From positions 1-53,569 of IMG/VR virus record IMGVR_UViG_3300045988_160359: a stretch of DNA of 53,569 nt, one strand, 5' to 3'. The notes below the pieces were generated by a model. That model was given only the letters and a program-made list of their open reading frames with translations. It had not been told where the DNA came from and ran no database searches. Each line of letters begins with the position of its first letter. Position 1 is the stretch's first letter. Of the stretch, positions 2,856-24,208 are shown piece by piece. Made by a program: the position numbers and the translations under genes. This stretch comes from a virus.

Positions 2856-2940
2856 AATTATACATTGTACGGCACGCGGAGGACAAAATAGGACAAACAT
2901 ATAAATTATATTTTCAAGATATGGTGAGAGGTGATAAAAA

Positions 2941-3096
2941 TTGGCAAATGAGAATAATACAGTTAAAATCAGTGTTAGACTGACACAAACTGAGAAAGAT
3001 GAATTACAAAATTTTGCCCAAGCGCAGGATTTAACAATGTCTCAGGTTATACGCAAGGCATTGAAAGAGTATATGAATAAAACAGACAGAATCTAA
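2941..3096 (+). CDS. Ribbon-helix-helix (Arc/CopG/omega-like) DNA-binding protein, ~51 aa, TTG start
   Basis: The translation ...VKISVRLTQTEKDELQNFAQAQDLTMSQVIRKALKEYM has the typical RHH beta-strand plus two helices. The TTG start lies 6 nt after GAGAGGTGA. It is below the ORF-track cutoff. Confidence 0.5.
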   Translation: MANENNTVKISVRLTQTEKDELQNFAQAQDLTMSQVIRKALKEYMNKTDRI

Positions 3097-3111
3097 GGAG
3101 TTGCCAAATTA

Positions 3112-3330
3112 ATGCTAAATACTAATAAAAGAAAAATTATATACTCATTAAGAGTATATGTAGGGCTTAAAGAACGAGGGTTTATCCCTATTGCAACAAC
3201 AGAAAATCCTACCAAACCTAATTTTATGTGTTGGATATTTGAACGGTCAGATGAGTTTGATGATGCATTAAAAGAACTTATGCCTGAATGTAAAAATTAT
3301 AAGTCAGGTGGTGAAAAGTCTAATGGCTGA
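3112..3330 (+). CDS. Hypothetical 72-aa protein
   Basis: ATG preceded by AAGGAG. The stop overlaps the start of the next gene as ATGGCTGA. Confidence 0.45.
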   Translation: MLNTNKRKIIYSLRVYVGLKERGFIPIATTENPTKPNFMCWIFERSDEFDDALKELMPECKNYKSGGEKSNG

Positions 3331-3766
3331 TGTTGAAAAACGTTTTGTATTTTATGGAGAATGGTTAAACAATATTAAATCATTAGATTAGGCCACTTAG
3401 GATAAGGTTATTGCTGATATTGTGCGTTATGGCACTAATGAAGATATGTTTTATAGTGATGACCCTGTGGTATCAACTATTGTTAATTTTACCAAAGGGG
3501 CAATTGACCATTCAAAAGATGAATATTTAAAAAAGGTTATGGCAGGTAAAACAAATGGTAGAAAGAAATCTGTTGATGATGATTAGATATTAAAACTTGC
3601 GAGAGAAGGTAAAACCGCGAGTTAGATTGCGGAATTATTGAATTTGAGTGTGAGTTCAGTGAATCATAGCGAGGGATGGAAGCGTCGTAAAGAATCAGTT
3701 GCTGAAAAATCAGTCGTTGAAGAATCGGTGCTTGAATAGAAAAAACCAGTTGAGTTTATATTTTAA
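3323..3766 (+). CDS. DNA-binding protein with a C-terminal resolvase-type HTH; needs read-through of 5 in-frame TAG codons
   Basis: When TAG is read as sense, the single frame gives ...GRKKSVDDD-x-ILKLAREGKTAS-x-IAELLNLSVSSV. Gln fits the HTH consensus at TAS-Q-IAELL. Under the standard code the ORF is only 21 aa long. Confidence 0.5.
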
Positions 3767-3950
3767 TTGCAAATTTGCAAAAATGTTTTTGCAAATTAAT
3801 TGCAATGCAATGCAAAAATGTTTTGCAAATTTTGCAAGTTTGATTGCAACTTGTTGCAATTGCAAATTGCATTATATAATATATATTTTTGCAAAAAAAT
3901 TGCAAAGTTTTTGCAAATTGCAAAAACTTATTTGCAATTTTATTTGACAA
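3766..3950. repeat. Dense array of about 15 copies of the palindromic hexamer TTGCAA, mostly as TTTGCAAA or ATTGCAAT
   Basis: Directly visible in the sequence, for example ttgcaaatttgcaaaaatgtttttgcaaattaattgcaatgcaatgcaaaa...ttgcaattgcaaattgca. Confidence 0.7.
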
Positions 3951-4327
3951 AACTAACGCTGTGGCACTTGAAAAGTGGCAGTAATGGAAAATTTGGAATA
4001 AAAAGTTCCTATTAATGTATAAATATAATATATAAAAAGGATGTATATGGGTATGATAAATTTTTATAAAGGTTCTTATGAGAATTTAGTAAGTAAAGCA
4101 TTAAATTTTTAGAAAATAGATAATATATATTTAACTAATAATAATGATTTATATTTTTGTATTGAGGAAGCAGGAAGGGTAAATAAGGACGTAGAGAATC
4201 CATTTTTAAATGATAATATAAATGAAATATATGGGTTTAATATATAAAAATAAGAAATAAGCGCATACTTACTTTTTATTTGAATTTAATTAGAAAAATT
4301 ATAAATAGGTAAAAGGAGAAATAAAAA

Positions 4328-4807
4328 ATGGGTTATCATAGTGGATTAAATGGGGAATATAATATTCCTGTGGAAGTAAATAATAAGAATGTAGCGCATT
4401 TTAAAAGATGCTGTAAAGAAGAAGTGCCTGAAAAGGCAATTAAAATAGAAACATATTTAAAAGATGATACAATCTATTTTGTATTACCAAATAATTATAA
4501 ACCTGTAAAGATTTGTTTTGATAGTAATGAAGAAGATAAATGCTATGCCTATGGTGGTAAGGGCAATAAAAAGTTGAATACTAATATTGATTTTACTTCA
4601 TCAGACCCTCGTACTACTGGATATTATTAGAATAATGATTATGTAAATATTAGTGATACGACAGATTACGCATAGCCTAATAATACTTATGTTTCTATAT
4701 TTGATTCTCTTCTGGATTTAAGTAAACAAGTAAATGCTATGGGGTATAAAGCAGAAGACGCTAGTGATGTATTAAATAATATATTTGATAAGTTATATAG
4801 TAAATAA
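4328..4807 (+). CDS. Hypothetical protein (~159 aa) with 2 in-frame TAG codons
   Basis: RBS AAAGGAG. Track ORF 4328..4630 ends at a TAG. The same frame then continues to a TAA at 4805-4807. Confidence 0.45.
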
Positions 4808-4961
4808 TTAACAAGGTTAATATTGTGGCATTTGATTTATATATAAAATTATTATATAATATTTATATATAAGAATAGGAGGTGCCATTTTTGAAATTTC
4901 ATTTGAAAAATGGGGTATAAATAGACATTTTGAAAAATGAAATGAAAAAATGAAATGAAAA

Positions 4962-5345
4962 ATGAAAAATGAATTTACTTATGATGAATTGAAAAATAAA
5001 TACAGTAAAAGAGTTGGAAATTATAAAGGCAGAGATGTAATTGTACGCTCTAAATATGATGATTTGGGCGATAATGTATATATTTTATATGATTATAACA
5101 ATGCCCTTATTGTTGATGGCTATTGGATTGCGACTATCAGTGAAGATGGTAGTTTAAATCATAGAAGAGCAACACCCTGGATTAAGATGGATCGAGCCTC
5201 GCCGGCGGGCAGGCCACTAACGTGTCCTGAAAGTGATTCGGGTGGCGAGAATGATATTAGTCTTGATGTTGACTCAACTCTCGTTGATTCTCTCTTGGAA
5301 TCGGCGTATAATGATATTTTGAGCGATTTGATGTATAAAGAATAA
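4962..5345 (+). CDS. Hypothetical protein (127 aa)
   Basis: Intact ORF preceded by an ATGAAA repeat leader. Confidence 0.45.
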   Translation: MKNEFTYDELKNKYSKRVGNYKGRDVIVRSKYDDLGDNVYILYDYNNALIVDGYWIATISEDGSLNHRRATPWIKMDRASPAGRPLTCPESDSGGENDISLDVDSTLVDSLLESAYNDILSDLMYKE

Positions 5346-5347
5346 AA

Positions 5348-5388
5348 AAATGGAGTGGTTTATCGCCACTCCATTTTTTTTAACCAAT
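5348..5388 (+). terminator. Rho-independent terminator closing the island operon
   Basis: ggagtggtttatcgccactcc hairpin followed by tttttttt and preceded by an A-run. Confidence 0.6.
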
Positions 5389-5770
5389 GATGTTTTTTTT
5401 GACTTATAACGCTTTTTTGAATCTGAGGTTAATACTTATTTAATTGTTTTATCTCCTAATAAACTAAATTAAATAAACCTATTAGCGGGGTTAATGAATA
5501 TAATTGTAAATAACGAATAATGGAACCTTATAATGTTTTTTCTTAATAACAAAATGATTATGGTAGAATGATGATAGTTTTGAAAAATTGAAAAATGAGA
5601 AAATGATGGAAGTTTGGTGCCCCCGCTCGGTACCAACTCATCACTCAATTTCATCGTTATCGTCATCCTCTGAATTTTTCAAGATACCCTTTCCAAAAAA
5701 CGTCGAGCCCAGGTATTCTAATCGCCAATTTCCCAAATAAAAAATACCTGGGCCGACACGTTAATCGAAA

Positions 5771-6145
5771 TTAAATGCGAGAAATCCAGTCGTTGAGAAT
5801 TTCGTCTACGGTTTTACCTTTCTTAATCGCACCCTTAGAGTTTGTCTCAAACCGGAAACCAGGCAGTTCAATCTTGAAGTTACCAGGGTCCTTGTAGAAT
5901 TTAAGGAAGTTGTCCATTACCTTAATGACGTCCTCGCCCTTCAACTCTGCACCCTTATAGCCGACGTAGGCCGCATAGTCGTTGATAGCATCGGCAACCG
6001 CTTCCGCTCGGGCCATCTTTTCTTTGTCCTTCTTCTGGTCAGCATATGCCTTGGTGGCGTCATTTAGCATCGCAGTCATTTCCTTAGCAATATCCTCAGC
6101 GCTCTCGCCATTCATTAAGCGCGTCAGAATATCGTTCTTATTCAT
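5771..6145 (-). CDS. Hypothetical early protein (124 aa)
   Basis: Intact ORF. Confidence 0.5.
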   Translation of the reverse strand: MNKNDILTRLMNGESAEDIAKEMTAMLNDATKAYADQKKDKEKMARAEAVADAINDYAAYVGYKGAELKGEDVIKVMDNFLKFYKDPGNFKIELPGFRFETNSKGAIKKGKTVDEILNDWISRI

Positions 6146-6249
6146 ATAAATAACCTCTTTTCATTTTGTATACATATATTATACAAAAAATTTTTTTAAA
6201 AGTCAAGTGAGAAAAAAAATGTTTTTTTTTATCATTATAACATAAATTT

Positions 6250-6490
6250 TTTTTTATGTCAAACCGGGCGGCATATGGGTACCGCTCGGGGCCCTTTACG
6301 GGATTTTTAGGGCGCATATGGAGGCCGCTAGAATTACGGAAAATTTTCCATATGGGGGTACAGATCGGAATTTCGGACCGCAGCGCCCGCGCTCGGCCCG
6401 TTGTATCCTCCCCTTTTATTATACCACACTGGGCTCGCGCTGTCAATAGGCAAAATGAACAAAAATTAAGGGTGGATTTCTCCACCCTTA
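6250..6490 (-). promoter_or_regulatory. Variant terminator-promoter-leader module upstream of 5771..6145
   Basis: On the minus strand the gggtggagaaatccaccc hairpin plus T-run terminator is followed by TTGACA-N17-TATAAT and a long GC-rich leader. Confidence 0.4.
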
Positions 6491-6494
6491 ATTT

Positions 6495-7103
6495 TTAATC
6501 CTCCCACGGCAGTTCGGGCGAGATTTCGTCCAGTTCCGCCTTGTCGTTATAGTCAGCGTTGATTGCCGGAATGTCGATAAACGAACGGCTTGCCACATAG
6601 TCAGCCATGTGTACCAGTCTGTCGATAGGAGTAAACGGTCTATCCGCCTTGTTGGTAGTCCACTGACCCATGTGGGACTTGATGGCTTGCGTCAACTCAT
6701 AGGGGCAATCCTCATTGAAAAACACCATCCATGTCCGGCAAACTTGGTCAGCGGCAATCGCGCCGTGCTGGGCATACTGTTCCTTGTCGAACTCGTGTAA
6801 GCCATACTTGGCTGTATCGTGGAGCAGACAGGCAACTCGTGCGTAGTCCTTGCGCTCGTCAGTCAGATACGCCCACTGGCTCATACGGAGCAATTCCTCA
6901 CAGAACCACGCCACCGCCTTAGTGTGCCGAACCAGACCGCCCTCACCCTGCGACATAGTCGGATGGAACTTACCGGAAGAACTTGCGCCGATAGTCTAGA
7001 AATAATCAGGAACGCGGCAGTCGAAGTAGAAACGCACGAACGAGCGCAAATCCTCGGACTGGATAAACTCGATTTCGTGGTCAAAAAACTGGCTCTTATT
7101 CAT
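6495..7103 (-). CDS. HD-domain phosphohydrolase; the reading frame contains one in-frame TAG at codon 36
   Basis: HD motif LLHDTAKY, with an upstream His in GKFHP/VRHTKAV. A strong AAGGAG lies 8 nt before the ATG at 7103. Codon 36 is TAG, at plus-strand 6996-6998. The track ORF runs 6495..6956, but its ATG has no RBS. Confidence 0.55.
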
Positions 7104-7227
7104 AGTAGTATCTCCTTGCTGTTGGTGGGTTCCAGCTCCCTCAGATTGTTTATAGTATAGCGCATTTCGGGACAAAATGCAATAGTCAATTTATACAAAC
7201 TTTCGCTGGAAAAATTATTGAAAATGT

Positions 7228-7350
7228 GTATTGACAAAAATGCCGGGCGCCACAATCGTGAGCGCCCGGTTCATTATACCACAGTCAGAGGGTGTTGTCA
7301 ATAGTCAAATTGAATAAAAAAATTGCTCTCAATTGAGAGCAATTTGATAA
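7228..7350 (-). promoter_or_regulatory. Promoter / hairpin / terminator module, minus-strand promoter only
   Basis: On the minus strand TTGACA-N17-TATAAT is followed by the conserved hairpin ccgggcgcc...ggcgcccgg. The aaattgctctcaattgagagcaattt hairpin sits at the gene boundary. Confidence 0.5.
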
Positions 7351-7673
7351 GTTCGACGAATGGTAATTTCAACAGACTTCGGCTTCACAGGACAGGCAAA
7401 TCTGTCATTTCTCACAAACACGCCGTATCCCATTTTCTGCCAATGCTCACGGTTTTTGTCCTCGTATCGCAAAGTGTTATACTTGGAGAGCGGTATCGAA
7501 AAATCGTAAACAAATTCAGAATTGTGCGGTAAACGGTGAATGGCGGTTTTGCGATAGTTTCTTGTGTGTTCCTGCTGTCTGCGTTTTAGGTCGTTAGTAG
7601 TGCCTATTTTCAGAATGTATACACCATTTTCATCATAATAGTGCCCTACATACAAAAATTCCTTGTTTTTCAC
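7329..7673 (-). CDS. GIY-YIG nuclease-domain protein
   Basis: Motifs YVGHYY...GVYILKIGTT...RRQQEH. The start is placed at an in-frame GTG preceded by GAGGA. The track ORF starts at a TTG at 7727. Confidence 0.55.
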   Translation of the reverse strand: MKNKEFLYVGHYYDENGVYILKIGTTNDLKRRQQEHTRNYRKTAIHRLPHNSEFVYDFSIPLSKYNTLRYEDKNREHWQKMGYGVFVRNDRFACPVKPKSVEITIRRTYQIALN

Positions 7674-7723
7674 ACTTTTTTCCTCATTTTTCAGGGAAAA
7701 TGGGGGATTTCTCCCCCATTTTC

Positions 7724-8122
7724 TCAACTTTTCGGCTTGCGCTTCTGCACAAGGGTCAGTTCATAGGAATTTTCACCGATTTTGAACGCAATCTGTCTCT
7801 CTTTGTTGGTAATTTCCACATTTTCACAGGCATTTTCGCTGTTTTCGGTCAAAAATCTTGCCAATTCAGCGATAATGGACGCTTTCGTGGGATTTGCCTT
7901 GCGTTCTCTCGTGGTGAATTTGTATGCGGTGGGGGTTTTGCGTGTGCCAGTTTTGGCGAATTTCTGTGCGACTTTGAGCTGTTCTTTCGACAGGTCAAAA
8001 TCCTGTGCCTTGCCCTTGTCGATTTCTCGGTCAGAGTTCCACACGGCTTCTGCTTCATCAGCCGTCCAGCCCATTTTCGCCATAGCGTTTTTCAGCCATT
8101 CAGTTTTGGAGATTTCAGCCAT
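7724..8122 (-). CDS. Cassette protein B (132 aa), paralog of 10339..10695
   Basis: Shares the motif PTAYKF-x2-RERKANPTK-x-IIAEL with 10339..10695. Confidence 0.55.
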   Translation of the reverse strand: MAEISKTEWLKNAMAKMGWTADEAEAVWNSDREIDKGKAQDFDLSKEQLKVAQKFAKTGTRKTPTAYKFTTRERKANPTKASIIAELARFLTENSENACENVEITNKERQIAFKIGENSYELTLVQKRKPKS

Positions 8123-8182
8123 AAAACACCGCCTTTTTAGATTTTAGAGGATAGGGGGGGAGAATGTCTCCCCCCTCATACC

Positions 8183-8635
8183 TTACTTGGCGGTGAAATA
8201 CGCCTTGCGCTTATCCTCGATACGGTCTGCCTGACCGTCCAGCACCATCTGACGCACCAGAGAGGAGACTTTCTGGTTGGATGCCTCGGCGATAGCGGGG
8301 ACAGACTTCATCAGAGCGGACACAGTGAACTTCTCGCCCTTGTGGGCGTCCAGGAACGCCTTGATGTCAGCCTTGATACCCTCGTTTGCCACCTGCGTGG
8401 CGGTCGGCTTCTTGTCCACGGTGTTCTTGCGGTCGAGCAGTTCCAGCTCATGCTTGGCGAACTCCGCCATCTCTGCGGGAGAAATGTCCACATAGACAGT
8501 CTCGAAGTCCTCGGAAGTGCCGATACGCTGGGAAATGGGGAACTTGAACTCGCCCACCTCGGCAAAGGTTTTGAGGGCGGTGAAGTAGTCGCGCTTGGTC
8601 ATACGGCGGTTAGCGGTGGAAGTGATAGCAGTCAT
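8183..8635 (-). CDS. Cassette protein A, paralog of 10747..11178
   Basis: Shares HELELLDRKNTVDKKPT-x-TQ and NQKVSSLVRQMVLDGQ...EDKRKA with its paralog. The start is placed at the internal Met of MTAITST. Confidence 0.5.
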   Translation of the reverse strand: MTAITSTANRRMTKRDYFTALKTFAEVGEFKFPISQRIGTSEDFETVYVDISPAEMAEFAKHELELLDRKNTVDKKPTATQVANEGIKADIKAFLDAHKGEKFTVSALMKSVPAIAEASNQKVSSLVRQMVLDGQADRIEDKRKAYFTAK

Positions 8636-8894
8636 AGTATCAACCCTTTCTGCGTTTTTAGGTGTCGCCCACCATATTGTTGTTTCCCTCTTGGAACATC
8701 TATATTCTAACACATATCCGAAGCCTTGTCAAGACTTTTTTTCGGATTTGTGGAATTTTTTTTAAGGTACACGCCCCGCCGGAGAACCTCTCGCCCTCTC
8801 CCTTGGAACAATTATATACTACCACACCCTTGGGCAGATTTCAATAGTCAATACTCACAAAAAATGGGATTTTCAACATCCAAAATTTGTGCAA

Positions 8895-9050
8895 AAAAAC
8901 ACTTGACAAAATTTGTGCTCCGTGGTATAATGGAAATTTCGGGTGCCATAGCCGTGAGCGCCCGACCCATTTTAACACATTTGAGCGCATTTGTCAATAG
9001 GTAAAATGCACAAAAATAAACCAGCGTAGTTGGCTACTACGCTGGTTCCC
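8895..9050. promoter_or_regulatory. Convergent-promoter / hairpin / terminator module
   Basis: The plus strand has TTGACA-N17-TATAAT at ~8903-8931. The minus strand has TTGACA-N17-TAAAAT at ~8997-8969. Between them lies the hairpin cgggtgccatagccgtgagcgcccg. The accagcgtagttggctactacgctggt hairpin follows. Confidence 0.55.
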
Positions 9051-9407
9051 CTGTTGATACTCGCCAGCCGTCCGGACAGCCAGCCCACTTCTACACAGCT
9101 TGACACTTAGAGCAGGCGCAATGCCCATGTAAAGGTCTTTCTCGGCACGCGGTGAATGTGGTTAGAACTTCGTACCCAGTCCCAATTTCTAACGAGGGGT
9201 TCAAGATGGCGGTTGAGAAGAAATTATTGAGTGGGACAAACACTCTATTAAACTCCATCTTGGCTGGGGTCTTAATCAATCTATAATACATATCTAATCA
9301 ATAAATCATAGATTGATTACTAAGGTGGTCGATACAATCGCCATTTCATTTTTCTCACCTCACGATGTTAGTATAGCATAGGCGGGGCTGTTTGTCAAGA
9401 GTTTTTT

Positions 9408-10091
9408 TCAAAATTCCAAATCATCACAGACGCCATAGCCGGAGAAATCGAGGATAACCGGAGAAATGCCAATGTAGCCGATGTTTGAGCCGTGGAGGTC
9501 GTTGATGTGATACTTTTTAACGAACTCACAGAGGGCGATAACCTTGCGTTTGCCGTAGATAGAAACGGCAACTTTCGCCCATAGCCCATCGAGGTCGCGC
9601 CCGTAGCCGTTAACATCAGCTTTGCGGAACTGACGCTCGATTTGAGAAATACGACAGTCGGGGACAGTCTTTGCGATACGCGAGAGACGAGTTTTTATAC
9701 CGTCCTCACTCCAATGGATTTTGTGTGCGCTGTTGGTGATAATCTGTTGTGCGGTAAACGCAACAGGGTCATCACCCTCACGCGGAGGAACAATGTAGCC
9801 AGCCAACTCGGTGGCGGGGAAAAAATCCGCGAGGTTTGCATCTACGGCTTTCTTATACACAGCCACTTCGCGCTCTGCATCCCGCGTCTCCGTAGACCAT
9901 TTGAGGACATACCCCAAATCAGGGAACACCAGACATTCCTTGCTTGCGCCGTTGCTGGACGCTACTTTGACATTAGGATATGCGTCGTGGATAACGCGGG
10001 CTAAGGTGTCCGCGTCTCTGACGCGCCTTGGCTTTTCAGATACCGCCTGCTGAATGGTCAGGATAAAATCCTGAACTCTCGGAAACTTCAT
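9408..10091 (-). CDS. Protein-kinase-like early protein (APH/CotH-like fold; 227 aa)
   Basis: VAVYKK (VAxK-like), YHINDLHGSNIGY (Brenner-type HxDLHxxN catalytic loop) and ILDFSGYG (DFG-like). The RBS is AAAGGAG. Confidence 0.45.
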   Translation of the reverse strand: MKFPRVQDFILTIQQAVSEKPRRVRDADTLARVIHDAYPNVKVASSNGASKECLVFPDLGYVLKWSTETRDAEREVAVYKKAVDANLADFFPATELAGYIVPPREGDDPVAFTAQQIITNSAHKIHWSEDGIKTRLSRIAKTVPDCRISQIERQFRKADVNGYGRDLDGLWAKVAVSIYGKRKVIALCEFVKKYHINDLHGSNIGYIGISPVILDFSGYGVCDDLEF

Positions 10092-10194
10092 CGTTCATCG
10101 CTCCTTTCAGTATCATTATTATAACACATTACAGGGGAATTGCAATAGTCAATACCTACAAAAAACGGGATTTCCAACATCCAAAATTTGTGCA

Positions 10195-10340
10195 AAAAAA
10201 CGCTTGACAAAATTGCCAGTGGGGGTGTATAATAGAAATTTCGAGCGCCACATACGTGGACGCGCGACCGAATTATACCACACGCGCCCGGATTTGTCAA
10301 TAAGCAAAATGCACAAAAATGAGGGAGATTTCTCTCCCTC
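10195..10340. promoter_or_regulatory. Convergent-promoter / hairpin / terminator module
   Basis: Plus strand TTGACA-N18-TATAAT and minus strand TTGACA-N17-TATAAT. The central hairpin is gcgccacatacgtggacgcgc. On the minus strand a gagggagagaaatctccctc hairpin plus T-run terminator follows. Confidence 0.55.
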
Positions 10341-10695
10341 ACTTGCGCGGGCACGACAGCACAACCTTGTATTTTGTTCCATCAAGCGTGAATAAAAATT
10401 CGCGCTCCGCGTTGCTCACGTTCAGGTCAGTCGCGCCGTATGTGGTCAGTGTCTCGGTCAGCAGAGTGATGATAGTCTGCTTTGTGGGATTAGCCTTTCT
10501 TTCTCTTGGTGCGAACTTGTATGCGGTCGGCTGGCGTCCTACTCCCCGCGCTTTCTTGCTTGCCTTTTCCTGTTCTTCGGTCAGCGGAAACGGATTGCCG
10601 CCCTTGTCGATGATAGCATCTTGAACAATAATGTCCTTTGCTTCGGCTTCGGTGCAATCCAGCTTTCGCATGAGGTCGGCAACTCGGTCAGTCAT
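10339..10695 (-). CDS. Cassette protein B' (118 aa)
   Basis: PTAYKFAPRERKANPTKQTIITLL, paralogous to 7724..8122. Confidence 0.55.
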   Translation of the reverse strand: MTDRVADLMRKLDCTEAEAKDIIVQDAIIDKGGNPFPLTEEQEKASKKARGVGRQPTAYKFAPRERKANPTKQTIITLLTETLTTYGATDLNVSNAEREFLFTLDGTKYKVVLSCPRK

Positions 10696-10746
10696 GCGGT
10701 ACTCCTTTCAGGGGTAGGGTGGGGATTGCTCCCCACCCTTTGAGGT

Positions 10747-11178
10747 TTACGCGCTCACCTTGCGGAAGAACGCCTTGCGCTTGTCCTCCACGCGCTCCAC
10801 CTGCTTATCCAGCACCATCTGCCGGACGAGGGAGGACAGCTTCTGATTGCTCATGTCCTTGCAGACGGGGAACTCTTTGAGCATCTCGCTGATGGAATAC
10901 AGCCGGTTGCTCTCCATAGCGGACAGGACAGTGGTCTTGATGACCTCATTCTCCTGCTGGGTCTTGGTGGGCTTCTTATCCACGGTGTTCTTGCGGTCGA
11001 GCAGGTCGATTTCGTGGGTGATGAACTCCACCAGCTTGGGGTCAGCCTTGACCTCGGACAGGTTCAGCAGGGCGGTGAAATTGTCGCGCTTGGTGGGCTT
11101 GCGGGTGGTGGTGTTAGTGTTAGCCATAGTATCAATTCCTTTCTCCATTTGGTTTTGAGGGCTTTGCCCTCCTGACAT
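10747..11178 (-). CDS. Cassette protein A'
   Basis: Paralogous to 8183..8635. The true start may be the internal Met of MANTNTTT at about 11127. Confidence 0.5.
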   Translation of the reverse strand: MSGGQSPQNQMEKGIDTMANTNTTTRKPTKRDNFTALLNLSEVKADPKLVEFITHEIDLLDRKNTVDKKPTKTQQENEVIKTTVLSAMESNRLYSISEMLKEFPVCKDMSNQKLSSLVRQMVLDKQVERVEDKRKAFFRKVSA

Positions 11179-11880
11179 TATCTATTATAACAGCTTGCGC
11201 TGGGATTGTCAAGAGTTTTTTCAAAATTCTTGATTTTTTTTGATAGTGTCAACAGGGGAACGCTCCACAAGGGTTCACAGACGACTTACCACCTCGCCTG
11301 ACGAATAAGGTGTTGCTGTTGGTTCAACGTTTCCATGCGCATGGACGAACTGACCAATCTACTCACTTTTCGTTCATCGTTTGGGTTTACTGCGCTGGTA
11401 TAGTCCTTACTTCCTTTACTCTCACACGGTTCGCGACCCGTGGATTTCTTGGGTGGGGCTATTCCCCTCTTGACATTATCAATTATAACACAGGTGCTGG
11501 GGATTGTCAAGAGGTTTTTTGAAATTTTTCCAAATTTCTGAAACCTGTCTACACAGGCGACACATTAGACGCATCTGCCGTGCCGTTCCCCTCTTGACAT
11601 TATCCATTATAACACAGATGCTGGGGATTGTCAAGAGGGGAAATGCGGGTCAGTTACCGAGTTGTCACACCCGCCAGCGTGGCTCCCCCGAGGAGCAACT
11701 TGCTGTCCCCTCTTAACATTATTCATTATAGCACCTTTGATGGAGTTTGTCAAGAGGGAATTTTGGTCTTTTTTTTCAGTACGGCGCGCTCTCACTTACA
11801 CTTGGGACATTACCTACCATTAGCCCAGCCCACGGGGTCTCACCCCCTCTTGACATTATGTAGTATAGCACAGGTGAGCA
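11165..11880 (-). repeat. Tandem array of five ~50-bp palindromic promoter repeats (CTCTTGACA ... TGTCAAGAG)
   Basis: Copies at ~11168, 11464, 11590, 11707 and 11845. On the minus strand each reads TTGACA-N17-TATAAT(TATAGC). They are separated by 70-250 nt of non-coding sequence. Confidence 0.6.
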
Positions 11881-11929
11881 TGAATTACAATAGGCAAACT
11901 ATACAAGTTTCGGGAAAAATAAATAAAAA

Positions 11930-12090
11930 AATTTGTGTAAAAAAACTCTTGACAAAATTGCTGGCGGGGTGTATAATGGTGAATTCCGGCCGAGACGCGC
12001 GAAATCGGCCGGCCATTATACCATGCCCAGGCGCGTTTGTCAATAGGGAAAATTATACAAAAAATGAGGGGAAAATCCCCTCATTTTTTA
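11930..12090. promoter_or_regulatory. Convergent-promoter / hairpin / terminator module
   Basis: TTGACA-N17-TATAAT on both strands. The central hairpin is ccggccgagacgcgcgaaatcggccgg. A bidirectional terminator follows: gaggggaaaatcccctc with A/T runs on both sides. Confidence 0.55.
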
Positions 12091-12621
12091 GTCCATCTGA
12101 CAAGCGAGAAATGCGTCCCGCTTTTCGTTCAGTTTGACGATTTCACCCGCGATTTTGTCAGCCCTCATAGCCAACAGACGCCCATAGCTTCTGCGCCACG
12201 CCAGCATACCATCGGGATTGACCGTGTAAATATACTTTTCCTTTTCCACGGTCTTGGTGTCCTTACGCTCCGTGCGGAAATTCTGTCCATTCATAGTCCG
12301 CAGAGCGTTCTGCGCCACTTCCGGCAACCGCATCCAGTCATACTCGGTCATCAGGGCGTTGCCATCCTTGTCAATCATCCAGATTTCCGCTTCCCACGGG
12401 TCGAGCGTGATTTCCTTGGTGGATTTCTCGGTGCGAACTGCCTTGATGATACCCTCGTCCCGCAGGAACGCCAGAGAATTGTAGGTGTATCGCCGATAGT
12501 CGTGCTTTGCTTTGGTGAAGTCCTCGGAAGTGAACTCCTTATTCCCGAACAGGTCTACCAGCCACTTGTAGGTCTTGACCGTGCGGTTGAAGTTGTGAAC
12601 GTTAGCGTAGCGAGCTTTCAT
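12088..12621 (-). CDS. Hypothetical early protein (177 aa)
   Basis: Intact ORF. Confidence 0.5.
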   Translation of the reverse strand: MKARYANVHNFNRTVKTYKWLVDLFGNKEFTSEDFTKAKHDYRRYTYNSLAFLRDEGIIKAVRTEKSTKEITLDPWEAEIWMIDKDGNALMTEYDWMRLPEVAQNALRTMNGQNFRTERKDTKTVEKEKYIYTVNPDGMLAWRRSYGRLLAMRADKIAGEIVKLNEKRDAFLACQMD

Positions 12622-12733
12622 AGTTTTTCTCCTTTTCTATTGGTGGGGCTTACCATCGTTTCCCCTACCTTGAATTTGTAATGTTATTATAGCATGGAAT
12701 GGGGGCGTTGTCAACCCCCATTCCAAACTTTTT

Positions 12734-12949
12734 TTACGGGGGATCGTGCTTGCGGTACTCAGTCAGGTCAGGGTCGCCAATCCATTCAGAAAAGTCAACC
12801 CAGGAGTCGAACACGTGAAGAATTTCGATTTCATCAGGTTCAAACACCCCGCCACAACAGGCGCAGATTACGAAACCATTTTCAAGCTGGATACCAGCCT
12901 GAACGCCATCAGAATGGTCGCCCTTAAAAAGCACTTGCTTAATAGGCAT
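12734..12949 (-). CDS. Hypothetical small protein (71 aa)
   Basis: Intact ORF with a CACCGG motif. Confidence 0.4.
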   Translation of the reverse strand: MPIKQVLFKGDHSDGVQAGIQLENGFVICACCGGVFEPDEIEILHVFDSWVDFSEWIGDPDLTEYRKHDPP

Positions 12950-13016
12950 TGTACTTACCTCCTTGTTTTAGTATAGTCATTATACCACATGAGAAAGGGG
13001 CTGTCAAGCCCCATTC

Positions 13017-13673
13017 TCAAAACTTGGGAAAACATTTTACCTCAAAGGGCGCGTCCCATGCGTGGACGTTCTTGGTGTATCGCTTGTGCATCTTCTGACA
13101 GGCGAGGAAAATTTCCATTTCCTGCATAGCGTCAGACAGGGCGGTGTGTTCTTCGGAAAAGTCGGGGTTATCGTGGAGATAACCATACACCGCTTCGACA
13201 GAGGTTGCACAGGTCTTGCCATTCTTGGAACGCTTGCCATGCTCTCGGCAGTATTCCGCATAGGACTTTTTGTGGGTGATAGTTTCCAGTGCCATCAGAT
13301 AAAGGTCGATGAACTCGAAATTATCCAGCAGGTCGCGGAAACAGGTCTTGCAGAAGTCAAAACCGGAATTGTACGCCATCACATAGCGAACGCCGTAATG
13401 GTCGCACAGGTTTTTGACTACCTCATAGGCTTCGCGCTCCGTGGCGATAGCGGAGATTTCGCCAGTTTTGAGCCGTTCGGCATATACGGGAAAATTCTTC
13501 TTGGCGTAGCCATCGAGGGCGATTTCGTCATAATGCTCCATCACCAGCAGGGAAGTGGTGGCGAGGATTTCGCCCTTGCGGTCGTGGATAATCGCGCCCA
13601 CATTATACATTCCCGTGGGGTGAGCCGCGCCGCCTACCGTTTCAGTGTCCAGCGTGCAGTAGATATTTTTCAT
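13017..13673 (-). CDS. DnaQ-like DEDDh 3'-5' exonuclease
   Basis: Exo I LDTETVG, Exo II YNSGFDF and Exo III HTALSDA. Confidence 0.6.
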   Translation of the reverse strand: MKNIYCTLDTETVGGAAHPTGMYNVGAIIHDRKGEILATTSLLVMEHYDEIALDGYAKKNFPVYAERLKTGEISAIATEREAYEVVKNLCDHYGVRYVMAYNSGFDFCKTCFRDLLDNFEFIDLYLMALETITHKKSYAEYCREHGKRSKNGKTCATSVEAVYGYLHDNPDFSEEHTALSDAMQEMEIFLACQKMHKRYTKNVHAWDAPFEVKCFPKF

Positions 13674-13784
13674 TATTCATTCTCCTTTTCTCTTGGTTGG
13701 GCTTACCATCGTTTCCCATACCTTAATTACATTACATATTATAGCAGACAGGGGTGAGGTTGTCAACCCCTGTCTGCTATTTTT

Positions 13785-14231
13785 TTACAGGTTTCGCAAA
13801 ATTTCCATCAGGAGGTCGGCGTTGTATGCCATATTGTGAGTGTTTGCCGTCCACTCGTTGAGGTTGCGCTGTTCGTCATCGAACAAAATCGCGTTGGGGC
13901 AGGTCGCACAGTTGGACTTGGGAACGCCATAGGGGACAATATGGATTTCGTCCCACTGAACGCTGGGGAGATGTTTTGCCAGCCAGTCGCGCTTGACTTC
14001 GGCTACTTCGGCATTGAACTTATCCGTTCCGCTCTTGGACAGCCAGCTGATGATGCCGATATTGTAGCCACGCGCCTGCAAGCGGTTCAGGTAGCGGGCG
14101 AGGGTGGAGAAATGGACAAGCGGGCGAGCGTCCGCATATACGCTTGTGTCAGCGGCTTCCAGCTTTGCCAGCCAGTTAGGGTCGCCATACAGGTCGGCGA
14201 TAGTCCCGTCCATGTCCAGATAGATAGTCAT
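13785..14231 (-). CDS. HAD-superfamily phosphatase (DxDGT)
   Basis: MTIYLDMDGTIAD at the N-terminus after GAAAGGAAG. The track ORF extends to 14354. Confidence 0.55.
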   Translation of the reverse strand: MTIYLDMDGTIADLYGDPNWLAKLEAADTSVYADARPLVHFSTLARYLNRLQARGYNIGIISWLSKSGTDKFNAEVAEVKRDWLAKHLPSVQWDEIHIVPYGVPKSNCATCPNAILFDDEQRNLNEWTANTHNMAYNADLLMEILRNL

Positions 14232-14384
14232 AGTATCAACTTCCTTTCTTGATTGTAATGCTATTATACAGGATAAAACGCAATTTGTCAACAGTTTTTT
14301 TCGGTTTTGCTCTTGGTCATTTCGCACAAACTTTCGGGATGCGCGCTTGGGCAAATTTGTTCAATTTACCTATTGACAAAATTG

Positions 14385-14520
14385 CTGGCAGGGTGTATAA
14401 TGGAAATTTCGAGCGCCAGGGCCGTGGGCGCTCGGCCGAGTATACCACAAATAGGGGTGTTTGTCAATAGGTAAATTGAACAAAAAAAATCTCCCAAATT
14501 TGGGAGATTTTTCAATTTAC
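14385..14520. promoter_or_regulatory. Convergent-promoter / hairpin / terminator module
   Basis: Plus strand TTGACA-N17-TATAAT. Minus strand TTGACA-N17-TATACT. Hairpin tcgagcgccagggccgtgggcgctcgg. Terminator tctcccaaatttgggaga. Confidence 0.55.
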
Positions 14521-14720
14521 TTGTTGGCGTGGAGAATGGAGTGCAGGATTACGACAATGAGCCAAATGACCAGCACCAGCTTCCACGAGAACACGATGGC
14601 GAAAGAGCCGATGGACGCGATGCCGATAGCAGGGAGAAGCCAGCAGAACAGCCAAACCAGTCCGGCGGTACACAGGAAGTCGAAAGCGGCAAGTGCCAAA
14701 AACAACAGAACGATGAACAT
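14517..14720 (-). CDS. Small hydrophobic membrane protein (67 aa)
   Basis: Almost entirely hydrophobic. The RBS is GAGAGGAG. Confidence 0.5.
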   Translation of the reverse strand: MFIVLLFLALAAFDFLCTAGLVWLFCWLLPAIGIASIGSFAIVFSWKLVLVIWLIVVILHSILHANK

Positions 14721-14722
14721 TT

Positions 14723-14920
14723 TTATTCTCCTCTCTTAAATACGATGGTTTTGTGTGTGGTAAAGGTCGCTCCGCGAACAAGCGGGTCATTTGCCAGGTC
14801 ATTTGCGATGAATGACAAGGCTTCATTCTCGTTCTTGAACCACTCGCTATTAGTGAAGCGTTCGCCCCAAGAAGTTATGCCCCACCACTCGATGTTGTAG
14901 TAGACATCTTTGGTTTCCAT
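14723..14920 (-). CDS. Hypothetical small protein (65 aa)
   Basis: RBS AAGGAGGG. Confidence 0.5.
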   Translation of the reverse strand: METKDVYYNIEWWGITSWGERFTNSEWFKNENEALSFIANDLANDPLVRGATFTTHKTIVFKRGE

Positions 14921-14933
14921 TGTTAATCCCTCC

Positions 14934-15083
14934 TTAGTAAATTTGTTCGCCGTTGTGATAGCGTTCGTATCTCGCTTCGAGGAAGTCGAGAATGAACTCG
15001 AAATCGTCCGCGTCCGCGGGGTCTACGAACGCCTTTTCGAGGATTTCGCCGGTGTGGTCATTGAAAACTTTAATCATTTCCAT
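14934..15083 (-). CDS. Hypothetical small acidic protein
   Basis: The start is placed at MEMIKVF after AAGGGAGG. Confidence 0.4.
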   Translation of the reverse strand: MEMIKVFNDHTGEILEKAFVDPADADDFEFILDFLEARYERYHNGEQIY

Positions 15084-15149
15084 TTTGTTGTCCTCCCTTA
15101 TTTGATGATACCATTCTAACACAGAGGGGCTGATTTGTCAACCCCTATT

Positions 15150-15626
15150 TTACAAATTTTTGCTTTCTGCCACGAAATATTTTGCGCCATACTGCGCCAC
15201 AATGTCCTTGACCTTTTTGCTCTCAGCTTGCGTGGCACAATAGAAATTAAATAGCGTGTGTTTGTTGCTAATCTCAATGTATGAGTGTGGAATGTCTCGC
15301 AGGTCAAAATCCACGGCGGCTCGATACTTAGTAGGAACAGTCATTTCGATTTTCCACAACTTTTCTTTGCGCGCCAACTCCTCAACCCACTTAACCGCCA
15401 GCACACCAATGAAATTACAGGCGGCGGTGATGCCCATTTTTGCCAACGTAGAAACGCCGTCAATGTTAGTCAAAATAATAACATAGGAATAGAAGCCATA
15501 GGTTAGCGCATTGATACCGGCGGCAACCCATTTATTGCCTTTAACAGTCAGAATAGACTTGATGGTGGACAGCACCACATTCACAGCGGTACAGATAATG
15601 AATAGAATAATAGCGTTCATAATCAT
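15150..15626 (-). CDS. Membrane protein with two N-terminal TM segments and a cytoplasmic domain
   Basis: The start is placed at MIMNAIILFIICTAV after AAAGGAG. Confidence 0.45.
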   Translation of the reverse strand: MIMNAIILFIICTAVNVVLSTIKSILTVKGNKWVAAGINALTYGFYSYVIILTNIDGVSTLAKMGITAACNFIGVLAVKWVEELARKEKLWKIEMTVPTKYRAAVDFDLRDIPHSYIEISNKHTLFNFYCATQAESKKVKDIVAQYGAKYFVAESKNL

Positions 15627-15762
15627 CACTCCTTTTTCAGTATAATAATAATAACACATTTAATTGAAAATGTCAAGAAAAATTTTTGTCGTAGTTAAAT
15701 TCTCACAAGATTAGTTTTTTGTTCCGTGTAGTTAGTTATAGCTAAACTTGAAAAGAGGGGCG

Positions 15763-16134
15763 TTAATGCCCCTCTGTTAGTTTGTTATACATACTCCACA
15801 GCGTTTCACAGGAATGGTTAGTCTGTTCAGCCATCCATACAATTTGGTCATCAGTCGGCAGGTATTTATCATCACGCCACCCGAAAAATCTTTCACAGGA
15901 CTGGTATGCCTTATACTCGTCCTCTGTCAGTTTGCCGCGCAACCGCCAGTCCCAGCAAACAGAGTCCACCATAGACCATATACACGCGCCTACGATAGTC
16001 AGTACCATAATCGCAACCGTTGCATATAGCACCAGTGTGGATTTTATCATACCATACACCAGCAGACCGAAACCACACACAATGAGGAAATTGCGCCCAT
16101 ACCTTTTAAGGGTCAACTTCTGAAAATCAGACAT
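15763..16134 (-). CDS. Membrane protein (123 aa)
   Basis: Two hydrophobic segments. Confidence 0.5.
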   Translation of the reverse strand: MSDFQKLTLKRYGRNFLIVCGFGLLVYGMIKSTLVLYATVAIMVLTIVGACIWSMVDSVCWDWRLRGKLTEDEYKAYQSCERFFGWRDDKYLPTDDQIVWMAEQTNHSCETLWSMYNKLTEGH

Positions 16135-16345
16135 TTTCTCTACTCCTTAACATATTGTCAGTAAATTCGTTGGAGAACTCCTCGGCGAAATCCTCACCAT
16201 AACCACGATTGGCAATTACCTCCATAACTGTCTCAATGCCGGACATATAATAGGGATTGCCGTTGATGGCATCATAACGCCCTTGGAACATAGGGCATTC
16301 GCGCAGGTCGCTGAAAACCATCTGATACGCTTTCTTCAACTCCAT
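16127..16345 (-). CDS. Hypothetical small protein (72 aa)
   Basis: Intact ORF. Confidence 0.45.
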   Translation of the reverse strand: MELKKAYQMVFSDLRECPMFQGRYDAINGNPYYMSGIETVMEVIANRGYGEDFAEEFSNEFTDNMLRSRENV

Positions 16346-16424
16346 TGTTCTTACCTCCTTGTTTCAGTATAGCCATTATACCGTATTACAGGATAGAAGT
16401 CAATCGTCAAATTGCACAAAATTG

Positions 16425-16560
16425 CGGCGAAAAATTTGTGGAGTATACCTATTGACAAAATGCCGGGCGCCACAATCGTTGGCGCGCGGCCGAAAATGTC
16501 AAGTGAAAAATTATACAAAATTTGGGCTGGATTTTTGTTCATCCAGCCCAAATGATTTTT
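16425..16560. promoter_or_regulatory. Degenerate copy of the promoter / hairpin / terminator module
   Basis: It has TTGACA boxes and the gccgggcgccacaatcgttggcgcgcggc hairpin, but weak -10 elements. The gggctggatttttgttcatccagccc terminator is present. Confidence 0.4.
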
Positions 16561-16807
16561 AGTCCTTTTCAAAAATAAAATCCGGTTTGAAAATGTAGAG
16601 GAACGCCACAGCGTAATGGAAAATCGGAATGATTGAGCCGGTGATGACTGTCAGCCAGTTAGAAAACGGACTGCGCTTGCTTTCGCCCCGGTTCTTGAAT
16701 GCTTCCTGCGCCTGTTCCTTGTTTTTCTTCATAGTCGAAATGATGCTTGCGATGCCCAGCCAGTAGAGAACGATACCGATGATGTAAATAATGAGAATGA
16801 TTTTCAT
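16559..16807 (-). CDS. Small membrane protein (82 aa)
   Basis: Two TM segments. Confidence 0.5.
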   Translation of the reverse strand: MKIILIIYIIGIVLYWLGIASIISTMKKNKEQAQEAFKNRGESKRSPFSNWLTVITGSIIPIFHYAVAFLYIFKPDFIFEKD

Positions 16808-16891
16808 AAATGTATCTCCTTTTTATTTGATTTACTTTTCCGATTTTGGAACGAAGCCACGGTTACTGGCTTTTGCGCTGAGAGTAAATGA

Positions 16892-17173
16892 TTATTCAAA
16901 CAAAACTTTTTCCCGGATGGTATAGCTTGCGATAATAGCACCGGAAAGCAAAACATAGGTTTCAAAACTGTATTTTTTCTTTTTGGAGGTATACGCCCTA
17001 CGCTTGCCGTTGAAATGCTCCTGAATGGTAAAACCCATTTCTGCATCAACGAGGTACAGGAAATAACTCAGTTCTTCAAACAGAGATAAAACCATTTCTT
17101 CGGCATCAGCTCGATTACCAAACAGTGCTATTAGTCTGGATGAATTTTCAAATACGGCATACCCAGTTTTCAT
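16892..17173 (-). CDS. Hypothetical small protein
   Basis: The start is placed at MKTGYAV after AAAGGGAGG. Confidence 0.4.
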   Translation of the reverse strand: MKTGYAVFENSSRLIALFGNRADAEEMVLSLFEELSYFLYLVDAEMGFTIQEHFNGKRRAYTSKKKKYSFETYVLLSGAIIASYTIREKVLFE

Positions 17174-17190
17174 TTTACTTACCTCCCTTT

Positions 17191-17391
17191 TTAGTGCTTT
17201 GGAACGAAACCCCGGCAGAATTGACGACACCAGGTGCGCTCGTTCTTTCGCTTCATACATTTACTCTCGCCCATACTGTTCATTACCTTGCCGTGGTTAT
17301 AACCCCAGTATTCACAGTTGGAACATCTTACCTTGTCAGGCTCTACGCAATAACGGTCGGCCAGTTCAGTTCTGATTTCAAAAGTAGTCAT
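17191..17391 (-). CDS. Cys-rich small protein (66 aa)
   Basis: CVEPDKVRCSNCEYW...C...C. Confidence 0.45.
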   Translation of the reverse strand: MTTFEIRTELADRYCVEPDKVRCSNCEYWGYNHGKVMNSMGESKCMKRKNERTWCRQFCRGFVPKH

Positions 17392-17479
17392 TCGGGGTAT
17401 CCTCCTTTATTTGATGTATTTATTATACCACACTTCTTGGTTGTTGTCAATAAAAAATGTGGGATTTCTCCCACATTTT

Positions 17480-17710
17480 TTATTTATTTTCTAACCGCAT
17501 TTTATCAGATCCGATAAGCGCGGCCAGCAGGTTTGAGGTATCACGGACTTGGCTCATAGAATACTCTTCGCCAATGTTGGAAATAGCGTATTCTTGTTCG
17601 TAGTCATACATCAAATCGAACAGGTGAGAAATGACCTCACGGGCGTCTTGAAGTTTGTTCTTTTCCTCTTGGGTAAGTTGAACCTGAACGTTTGAGGTAA
17701 TAATGTTCAT
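17480..17710 (-). CDS. Small protein (76 aa), paralog of 17726..17953
   Basis: LTQEEKNKLQDAREVISHLFDLMYDYEQEY aligns with LTENERKTLRDAYDILNELYDVIADNDCEY. Confidence 0.45.
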   Translation of the reverse strand: MNIITSNVQVQLTQEEKNKLQDAREVISHLFDLMYDYEQEYAISNIGEEYSMSQVRDTSNLLAALIGSDKMRLENK

Positions 17711-17725
17711 TTGTTGTACCTCCTT

Positions 17726-17953
17726 TTATTTACCGATTTCCACTTTTTCAGTGGGGGCAAGCATTTGAAGCACATTGGCTGTAAGCGCGACGTCCACTCT
17801 GTCATAGCCATTCCCGCAAGTATCGCTCACATACTCGCAATCATTATCGGCGATGACATCATACAATTCATTGAGAATGTCATAGGCGTCGCGCAAGGTT
17901 TTCCGTTCATTCTCTGTCAACTTGGCATAGATGGGAGCTTTGATAATTTCCAT
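17726..17953 (-). CDS. Small protein, paralog of 17480..17710
   Basis: The start is placed at MEIIKAP after AAAGGAG. Confidence 0.45.
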   Translation of the reverse strand: MEIIKAPIYAKLTENERKTLRDAYDILNELYDVIADNDCEYVSDTCGNGYDRVDVALTANVLQMLAPTEKVEIGK

Positions 17954-18022
17954 TTTGATATTCTCCTTTCTCTTGGTATTATCTATTATAGCAGATAAGG
18001 ACTTGTTTGTCAAGCCCTTATC

Positions 18023-18352
18023 TTAATTTTTATTCATCAGGTAGTTAGTCTCGATAGTCCAACCGCAGTCTTGACAGGTGTAGTAAAATGTTTCGCTCAT
18101 ACGGTAGCGAGTAGAGGAAGAGAAGCGGTATTCGCCGCCGCACTTGACACATACGCCATTATTGAAAGTGTCGCAGTCATTGATGTGTTCCTGTCCCATC
18201 ATAGCACCAACACCGAAGAAGATAGCACAGCAGATAATGAATGACAGTACCTTGCTCACCCAACGGTCGCAACACCCAATAGCAACAGATAAACCGATAG
18301 GCAGACCAGCGACACCACCCATAAGCAGACCACCGATAATTACATCAGACAT
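18023..18352 (-). CDS. Membrane protein with a C-terminal zinc ribbon
   Basis: The start is placed at MSDVIIGG after AAGGGAGG. CVKCGG...CQDCG. Confidence 0.45.
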   Translation of the reverse strand: MSDVIIGGLLMGGVAGLPIGLSVAIGCCDRWVSKVLSFIICCAIFFGVGAMMGQEHINDCDTFNNGVCVKCGGEYRFSSSTRYRMSETFYYTCQDCGWTIETNYLMNKN

Positions 18353-18422
18353 TTTTTCGTCCTCCCTTGTTTTGTTATACTCATTATAGCAGAAATGGGG
18401 CTTGTTGTCAAGCCCCAATTTT

Positions 18423-18746
18423 CTACTTTACTACATAAAATTCGGGGTGGCGTTCTTCATTCTTGCGAATGCGCTTGACCAACTGTTGAGGTAAGCGGTT
18501 TTTGCCAGCACTCTTGTATATAGCGACAGCCCGTTCAAAGGTTGCGGGGTATGCGGTGATGATGAAATTCTCATATAAGTCCAGCACCAAAATGATGCCA
18601 GTCGAGAGCAAACGCAGGCGCGCAGTTTGGCGTTGGTCAATGACCTCAATCATCACGCGGTCAGAATATCCGAGATATTCCTGTAAGAGGGCGAGCCGGT
18701 TAGCCCGCTCCTCTGTCAGATGGTTCGACATAGTGTAGTTTTCCAT
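18423..18746 (-). CDS. Hypothetical protein (~107 aa)
   Basis: The start is placed at MENYTMSN after GGGGTGG. The track's 186-aa ORF fuses it with the upstream gene. Confidence 0.4.
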   Translation of the reverse strand: MENYTMSNHLTEERANRLALLQEYLGYSDRVMIEVIDQRQTARLRLLSTGIILVLDLYENFIITAYPATFERAVAIYKSAGKNRLPQQLVKRIRKNEERHPEFYVVK

Positions 18747-18751
18747 ATTAC

Positions 18752-18928
18752 CACCCCATATTGAACACGAAGCGCACCAGACCGATACAGGCAACGCCAT
18801 ATAGGATAGAGCCAACGAGGAAGTGCCAGTCGTGCGTCTGACGATAGACCATATACCCGCCGACACACTGAACGCCAGCGAAGCCAGCGAGGGCGAGGAT
18901 TGCGAGGATTGCGATAGTAGCCATTGTG
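18752..18928 (-). CDS. Small membrane protein (~58 aa)
   Basis: MATIAILAILALAGFAGV... after AAAGGAGG. Confidence 0.35.
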
Positions 18929-19044
18929 AATGACCTCCTTTAATTGATGGTATAAGTATAGCATACCTACTGGGCGTTGTCAACCGTCAAATTGCACAAA
19001 TTTCGGGATAAAAAATTGTTGAAAATACCGAACACAAAATGCTT

Positions 19045-19190
19045 GACAAATTGGCTGGGCTGTGGTATAATGGAATTTCCGGCCGCAACAGTCGTGGGCG
19101 GCTGGCCAAATTATACCATAGAAATGCTATTTTGTCAATAGGCAAAATGCACAAAAAAATGAGCCAAAATTTGGCTCATTTTATAATTCC
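19045..19190. promoter_or_regulatory. Convergent-promoter / hairpin / terminator module
   Basis: TTGACA-N17-TATAAT on both strands. Hairpin ccggccgcaacagtcgtgggcggctgg. Terminator gagccaaaatttggctc. Confidence 0.55.
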
Positions 19191-19284
19191 TATTCCGATA
19201 AGACAGAGGTACAGAAGAACACCACCGAAACCGAAAAATACAATCAGTCCCATAAACCACTGCCACAATCTTTCGTGTTTCATA

Positions 19285-19470: not shown

Positions 19471-19480
19471 ATTCGCGCCC

Positions 19481-21640: not shown

Positions 21641-21646
21641 GGACGC

Positions 21647-24207: not shown

Positions 24208-24208
24208 A

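Follow-up and report, generated by a model that had tools for sequence, protein, structure and literature searches.

The in-frame TAG at codon 36 of the HD-domain hydrolase gene is best explained as a strain-specific, possibly leaky, amber mutation of Trp36 and not as a conserved regulatory device (estimated probability about 0.75). The gene is located on the minus strand of a DNA stretch of 53,569 nucleotides, referred to as the window in this report. The window is part of the ~197-kb genome of an uncultivated human-gut phage of a Firmicutes-type (SPbeta-like) lineage. The host is presumably a Firmicute that uses the standard code. An earlier inspection of the letters, here termed the sequence-only reading, had interpreted the TAG as a built-in timer or conditional switch rather than as the mark of a pseudogene. 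This interpretation is not supported, since the TAG is not shared by relatives, replaces a Trp and would give W36Q when read.

The HD gene and its expression signals comprise the following elements.

6495–7103, minus strand: full HD-domain hydrolase gene with 202 codons plus stop, delimited by translation; the in-frame TAG is codon 36.
7273–7301, minus strand: sigma-70 promoter with the perfect consensus TTGACA-17-TATAAT and a TG extended −10, driving the HD gene.
7238–7270, minus strand: GC-rich hairpin at the leader's 5' end, belonging to a cassette of promoter and hairpin of which further copies exist.
7112–7117, minus strand: Shine-Dalgarno sequence AAGGAG with an 8-nt spacer to the ATG at 7103–7101.
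6999–7103, minus strand: codons 1–35 (MNKSQFFDHEIEFIQSEDLRSFVRFYFDCRVPDYF), the N-terminal segment before the TAG, a constrained coding sequence.
6996–6998, minus strand: in-frame TAG, codon 36, derived from TGG (Trp) as judged by comparison with relatives.
6960–6989, minus strand: codons 39–48, the near-invariant GASSSGK(F/Y)HP block, a GxxxxGK-like loop between the TAG and Met50.
6954–6956, minus strand: ATG of codon 50, the start picked by standard-code gene callers; an internal residue and not a conserved start.
6591–6929, minus strand: HD catalytic domain (H60, H95-D96, D168), placed by the Pfam match to residues 59–171 and by invariant columns.
6460–6497, minus strand: intrinsic terminator with a 17-bp stem and a T-run, overlapping the TAA stop.

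The hairpin at 7238–7270 was assigned to the repeat families D4, D6 and D10. Concerning the layout of the gene, the sequence-only reading is borne out. The AAGGAG-N8-ATG start is present at 7117–7101, and the N-terminal stretch that ends in the TAG at 6998–6996 consists of 35 sense codons with the TAG as codon 36. Translation confirms that the frame continues from the TAG into the HD domain (TIGASSSGKFHP...VRHTKAV...LLHDTAKY) and runs to the TAA at 6497–6495. The residues directly following the TAG are given as TIGASSSGKFHPTMSQGEGGLVRHTKAV, with ...LLHDTAKY... further downstream. The peptide expected of the suppressed (TAG-read) HD product is VPDYFQTIGASSSGK. The HD gene is monocistronic, conserved and subject to purifying selection, and is assigned to the early genes on account of the perfect sigma-70 promoter, its own terminator and the 29 perfect promoters of the compartment in which it resides.

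Sequence comparison assigns the product to the HD-domain phosphohydrolase family (PF01966 / PHROG 5889); a metal-dependent phosphohydrolase or nuclease activity is predicted from the fold similarity to the YhaM HD domain. Pfam HD (PF01966) matches residues 59–171 with 38.1 bits (cut-off 22) and PHROG 5889 matches residues 5–186 in a single stretch that crosses the TAG (E = 1.4e-42). A large protein collection contains 1,666 homologs, nearly all of them ~200 aa long and aligning from residue 1. The identity of full-length homologs is up to 89% in this search and 98% for P0244. According to tblastn, the family is present in phages of Bacillus (SPO1 gp32.6 and relatives), Clostridium and Exiguobacterium. 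H60, H95, D96 and D168, which form the metal-binding H...HD...D set, are invariant or nearly so in the family. A sequence search of the PDB with the HD protein gave no match to any solved structure. The best solved-structure match suggested by Foldseek is the HD domain of the exoribonuclease YhaM (9h3f_A; TM 0.63, E = 7e-4). The H...HD...D residues are shared with PF01966, PHROG 5889 and SPO1 gp32.6-like phage proteins, and the Pfam score is above the gathering threshold. An N-terminal three-helix extension and the GASSSGKxHP loop are peculiar to the family.

Standard-code gene callers annotate products of 153 aa and 35 aa. This would be in line with a native start at ATG 6956, the upstream 35 codons being an untranslated leader or a separate small ORF, but such an architecture is extremely improbable. 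The ~200-aa homologs align from residue 1 and do not start at the downstream Met. Codon 50, Met in the window, is Phe in 109 of 120 homologs. No Shine-Dalgarno sequence is found upstream of the ATG at 6956–6954, as the sequence-only reading had stated, and a strong one is located at 7117–7112. F7, E10, I11, I14, F22 and F35 of the N-terminal segment are invariant across homologs, as are G39, A40, S41, G44, H47 and P48 of the GASSSGK(F/Y)HP block. Comparison of the window with the nearest Trp-allele strain gives dN/dS values of 0.05 (whole gene) and 0.049 (codons 1–35); the two genes differ at 34 of 609 nt and in 4 codons only. In the AlphaFold model of the closest full-length homolog (mean pLDDT 91.6), residues 1–40 have values of 92–99 and form helices at 3–11, 17–29 and 33–36. 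Thus, homolog length, Phe50, the missing ribosome-binding site and the constraint on codons 1–35 refute ATG 6956 as the native start. The true start is ATG 7103, as had been claimed, and the 35 upstream codons belong to the protein.

Of 120 homologs, 112 have Trp at position 36, four Lys, three Phe and one Tyr; none has Gln or a stop. The window reads TTC TAG ACT at this site, and all ten fetched loci of related strains (L001–L005 and L018–L022), whose HD proteins are 84–98% identical to that of the window, read TTC TGG ACT. The 13 other listed members of the same 90%-identity cluster (window allele excluded) also have Trp36. Accordingly, the comparison of homologs for an in-frame TAG at the same codon is negative. 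On these sequences, the TAG arose from the conserved Trp codon by a G→A transition that is confined to a single lineage. The exact Trp version of the window's HD allele is absent from the protein collection searched.

The TAG allele itself is not confined to the window. In 12 fetched TAG-carrying contigs the HD sequence is identical where covered, and the identity of the contigs to the window is 99.2% or more over stretches of up to 16 kb. They therefore represent one near-clonal strain. Products of the allele are found on about 15–17 contigs, either as 153 aa under the standard code or as 202 aa with Q36 under a readthrough code. A product of 129 aa (P0253) was considered as an independent second disruption and rejected; sample and allele are identical, the start having been called differently. 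The allele is seen on complete-length genomes of 197.6 kb. The sources of the contigs are sequencing runs of PRJEB1220 and PRJEB4336 together with several other ENA assemblies, and only a few individuals may be represented. Because the allele occurs in complete genomes and several datasets, it is not strongly deleterious. Promoter, ribosome-binding site, terminator and the remaining frame are intact in the HD gene, and there is no second lesion. All TAG copies are identical, so that decay has had no time to become visible. The intact signals and the lack of decay fit a very recent mutation, but also a maintained, still-used gene.

TGG and TAG differ by one base and full-length calls with a readthrough code exist. 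Both points would suit a sequencing or assembly error, or a phage in which TAG means Trp and the codon is effectively silent, but these explanations can practically be discounted. Sequencing error as the source of the TAG is ruled out by the same base in 12 contigs from different runs and assemblers. A silent Trp codon is ruled out by the terminase alignment, in which the window's terminase with its 10 TAGs was compared with 50 diverse homologs of 26–65% identity. At position 64, a TAG in the window, Gln is present in 50 of 50 homologs. In the pooled TAG columns of the 47 more distant homologs Gln accounts for 18% of the residues against a background of 3.6%, the non-Gln residues at the TAG columns are polar, and Trp is found in 0 of 441 cases. 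Furthermore, the 63 TAGs of a coiled-coil-rich protein of 2,765 aa are incompatible with Trp. From these alignments, TAG is assigned to Gln (code 15) in this phage. Suppression of the HD TAG would therefore give W36Q and not the wild type. ARAGORN detected no tRNA in the 53.6-kb window, in nine related loci or in the 10 kb left of the window (genome ~197 kb), and exact-pattern scans of viral and metagenome contigs for a suppressor tRNA gave nothing. In the phAss-1 group TAG is likewise Gln, with a Gln-type tRNA-Sup-CTA (PMC10607447).

The significance of a TAG in the HD gene depends on the two code compartments of the genome. The recoded part of the window is mainly formed by one module.

25905–50991, plus strand: low-GC late module in which TAG is read as Gln, with 117 in-frame TAGs in 17 genes.

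Readthrough of TAG, unlike that of TGA or TAA, restores a continuous plus-strand module at 25.9–51 kb and raises the summed ORF length from 5,153 to 14,428 aa. The module encodes a sigma-like factor, terminase, portal, YonB/YonD/YonG-like (SPbeta-like) structural proteins and a tape-measure-like ORF; terminase and portal were recognised by PHROGs matches. Proteins matching the terminase are encoded by hundreds of human-gut contigs with lengths of up to ~200 kb. No close relative of this phage was found in the deposited phage collection. The GC content is bimodal and tracks code use. It is 42–51% in the small minus-strand early genes at 5.5–24 kb, which have no TAG except that of the HD gene, and 25–35% in the late plus-strand genes, where TAG makes up 32% of Gln-type codons. 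Compartment boundaries are located near 2.9, 5.4 and 24.0 kb. In-frame TAGs number 0 in the 31 other early genes (3,731 codons) versus 117 in the 17 late genes (8,075 codons). In seven relatives, 25 early genes are free of in-frame stops. Thus, the sequence-only reading is right that the early neighbours of the HD gene are TAG-free and that the gene resides in a standard-code context; TAG is read as sense in the late genes. Independent contigs span both junctions. A chimeric assembly is therefore excluded as the cause of the GC split, and the genome itself is split in GC content and code.

At 8848–9291, a further early gene with a TAG was considered and rejected. The region lies between genes, is rich in promoters and contains no called gene in any of the relatives. 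Among the well-supported early genes, a single one (18423–18983, minus strand) has TAG as its terminator, and readthrough adds four codons before a TGA. Of the remaining 30 tabulated early genes, 22 stop at TAA and 8 at TGA; the HD gene also ends in TAA. As early-gene stops are nearly all TAA or TGA, TAG is avoided as a terminator genome-wide. An island of very low GC content (20–36%) is present in the early region at 2900–5400 (plus strand). Eight of the nine Gln-type codons in its ORFs are TAG, and it resembles a small recoded module of the late type placed among early genes.

The first late gene (25905–26966, plus strand) matches a phage sigma factor (PHROG 5767) and has four in-frame TAGs, so that late transcription itself may depend on TAG suppression. 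Its product has a C-terminal HNH or endonuclease VII-like zinc finger. Four late genes at 33601–36336 and 39769–40848 (plus strand), including a YonB/capsid-like protein and a virion structural protein, have no TAG at all. Their GC content (0.36–0.41) is above that of neighbouring late genes, and they are likely among the most abundantly made. The tape-measure-like ORF of 2,765 aa with 63 TAGs (42694–50991, plus strand) is readable with TAG as sense only and contains a Gly/Ser-rich linker. The region following this giant ORF (51000–53569) is ORF-poor with ~25% GC and has no tRNA or Rfam hit; Rfam gave no hits in the whole window.

The proposed course of events is as follows. A single G→A transition in one strain turned the conserved TGG of Trp36 into TAG. 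Host RNA polymerase would transcribe the HD gene early from the consensus promoter, and ribosomes would start at 7103. With host RF1 unopposed, UAG would terminate translation and a 35-residue peptide would be released. Weak re-initiation at AUG 6956, 39 nt downstream and without a Shine-Dalgarno sequence, would yield a 153-aa fragment at most. This fragment is probably inactive, because three core helices of the N-terminus and the invariant GASSSGKxHP loop are missing from it. Once TAG-to-Gln decoding is active, leftover HD mRNA would be translated into full-length W36Q and not into the native protein. The claim that full-length protein appears only once suppression is active thus holds for an in-frame TAG in a standard-code early compartment. 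W36Q could still work, because 4 of 120 homologs have Lys at position 36. The TAG allele may accordingly be loss-of-function or hypomorphic and be buffered partly by the phage's own code switch. The expression timing, the suppression efficiency and the fitness effect of W36Q in this scheme are putative.

The same events could be read as an evolved timer, in which selection retains the TAG so that the full-length HD hydrolase awaits TAG-sense decoding. The two-code layout is real (0 TAGs in 3,731 early codons, 117 in 8,075 late codons), the expression signals of the HD gene are intact, the allele occurs in several datasets and full-length genomes, and a few homologs accept Lys at position 36. 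Furthermore, gating by a recoded stop was proposed for an early-located intron endonuclease in Agate phages (bioRxiv 10.1101/2021.08.26.457843). However, the TAG is confined to one near-clonal strain, with TGG in the ten fetched loci and Trp in the other listed cluster members. It replaces a conserved Trp and is read as Gln, so that the gated product would be a mutant with a residue never seen at this position in the family. The gene has seven CAG codons that would be silent as TAG under code 15, and no strain has TAG at any of them. Gating is absent from the other early genes of eight strains (the window and, for 25 genes, seven relatives). A designed switch is expected at a CAG codon and shared by relatives. 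Neither is seen, and an evolved timer is therefore unsupported and unlikely. The intact signals, the persistence in full-length genomes and the tolerance of Lys leave a small probability for a switch or a hypomorph. Retention of the amber codon for a natural re-timing by one point mutation, in which a host-type promoter drives the gene early but the full-length and still active W36Q enzyme would be made only after the TAG-to-Gln switch, likewise has only a slight chance of being correct.

Another alternative is an adaptive knock-out, in which loss of HD function is advantageous in the host of this strain, e.g. by avoiding a host response, and the amber codon is no more than the route of this loss. 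The persistence of the allele in complete genomes and several datasets would agree with it, and the product of a restart at Met50 would miss invariant residues. On the other hand, purifying selection on the gene is strong elsewhere (dN/dS 0.05), and every relative examined has the gene. It has acquired no second disabling lesion or deletion, and even the deletion-type contigs L011 and L012 retain it. The allele is a single occurrence with no signal of recurrence. A knock-out of this kind is unlikely, and a strain-specific amber mutation of Trp36 is preferred.

This preferred reading resembles the classical amber mutants of T4 and lambda on supE (Gln-inserting) hosts, in which TGG→TAG or CAG→TAG truncates the protein unless a tRNA(CUA) inserts a residue. 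A Gln-inserting suppressor restores the length of the protein and may leave a missense change. Unlike the classical mutants, the HD mutation arose naturally in a gut population, and the suppressing activity presumably comes from the phage itself, later in its own cycle, and not from a mutant host. Genome, gene and TAG all fall within known categories, namely a code-15 gut phage, HD/PHROG 5889 and an amber mutation.

Recoded gut phages have standard-code early genes and code-15 late genes (Borges et al., bioRxiv 10.1101/2021.08.26.457843; PMC10607447), and TAG recoding was validated by metaproteomics for crAss-like phages (PMC9523058). Like the code-15 phages of Borges et al., the phage described here has TAGs concentrated in structural and late modules and a terminase in which TAG is aligned with Gln. 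Early genes readable in the host code, a genome of ~200 kb, recoded modules spread across the genome and a presumed Firmicute host with the standard code are also common to both. In the code-15 model late and lysis gene families are recoded consistently across related genomes, whereas the TAG of the HD gene is solitary, affects an early gene in one strain and replaces a Trp and not a Gln codon. Furthermore, no suppressor tRNA was found here in the 53.6-kb window or the searched flanks.

The portal of Phassvirus / phAss-1 (OQ749652.1) is 38.7% identical to that of the window, and in the phAss-1 group TAG is Gln in the TerL, portal and tape-measure genes (PMC10607447), as in the phage described here. 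Orthologous ORFs of related genomes of that group differ in carrying TAG, and Enterococcus phage EF1 is a non-recoded relative (PMC10607447). These variable TAGs were treated as Gln-coding (PMC10607447), whereas the HD TAG replaces Trp. The phAss-1 genome also differs in size (136 kb versus ~197 kb), and the sequence relationship is distant.

For annotation, the HD allele is problematic in either code. Standard-code callers split the gene into products of 35 aa and 153 aa (or 129 aa), code-15 callers silently write Q36, and neither type flags the mutated Trp. The allele also illustrates, on a small scale, that late suppression of TAG makes amber mutations of early genes conditionally leaky and not null. 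This could soften selection against such mutations and occasionally re-time a gene. If the unlikely re-timing were true, code-15 phages might more generally be buffered against amber mutations in early genes and have an easy route for shifts from early to late expression. If the TAG were a switch, a single transition would move a gene between expression classes; this is not supported by the comparative data.

The early compartment is rich in promoters. In the 19 kb at 5400–24400, 29 perfect (12/12) sigma-70 promoters TTGACA-17-TATAAT are present, mostly with a TG extended −10. Promoter-like sites of all grades number 88, compared with 31 expected from shuffles. The region looks like a very dense array of early promoters for host RNA polymerase, including some divergent pairs. 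A conserved GC-rich hairpin of the type CGGGCGCC-AC...GTG-GGCGCCCG is located immediately 3' of many early promoters, in repeated cassettes.

7270–7238, 8966–8934, 14436–14404 and 20237–20205, minus strand: copies of the GC-rich hairpin.
Within 8896–8972, 10198–10274, 14366–14442 and 19036–19112, plus strand: copies of the GC-rich hairpin.

The hairpin has no match in Rfam. Stabilisation of the 5' end, attenuation or protein binding are possible roles.

In L011 and L012, two contigs of low coverage from the strain of the window, ~16450–16490 is joined straight to ~7230–7269, with 9.2 kb of early genes missing. The junction reflects either a variant with a deletion or a jump of the assembly from one copy of the promoter cassette to another. 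In two related loci, genes for HNH_3/NUMOD4 homing endonucleases flank the HD gene (L018, 9200–9775 and 10728–11330; L019, 883–1485), and in a third an extra gene of 204 aa is located beside it (L022, 2776–3390). None of these flanking genes is present in the window strain. The HD locus thus appears to be a hotspot for the insertion of mobile endonucleases.
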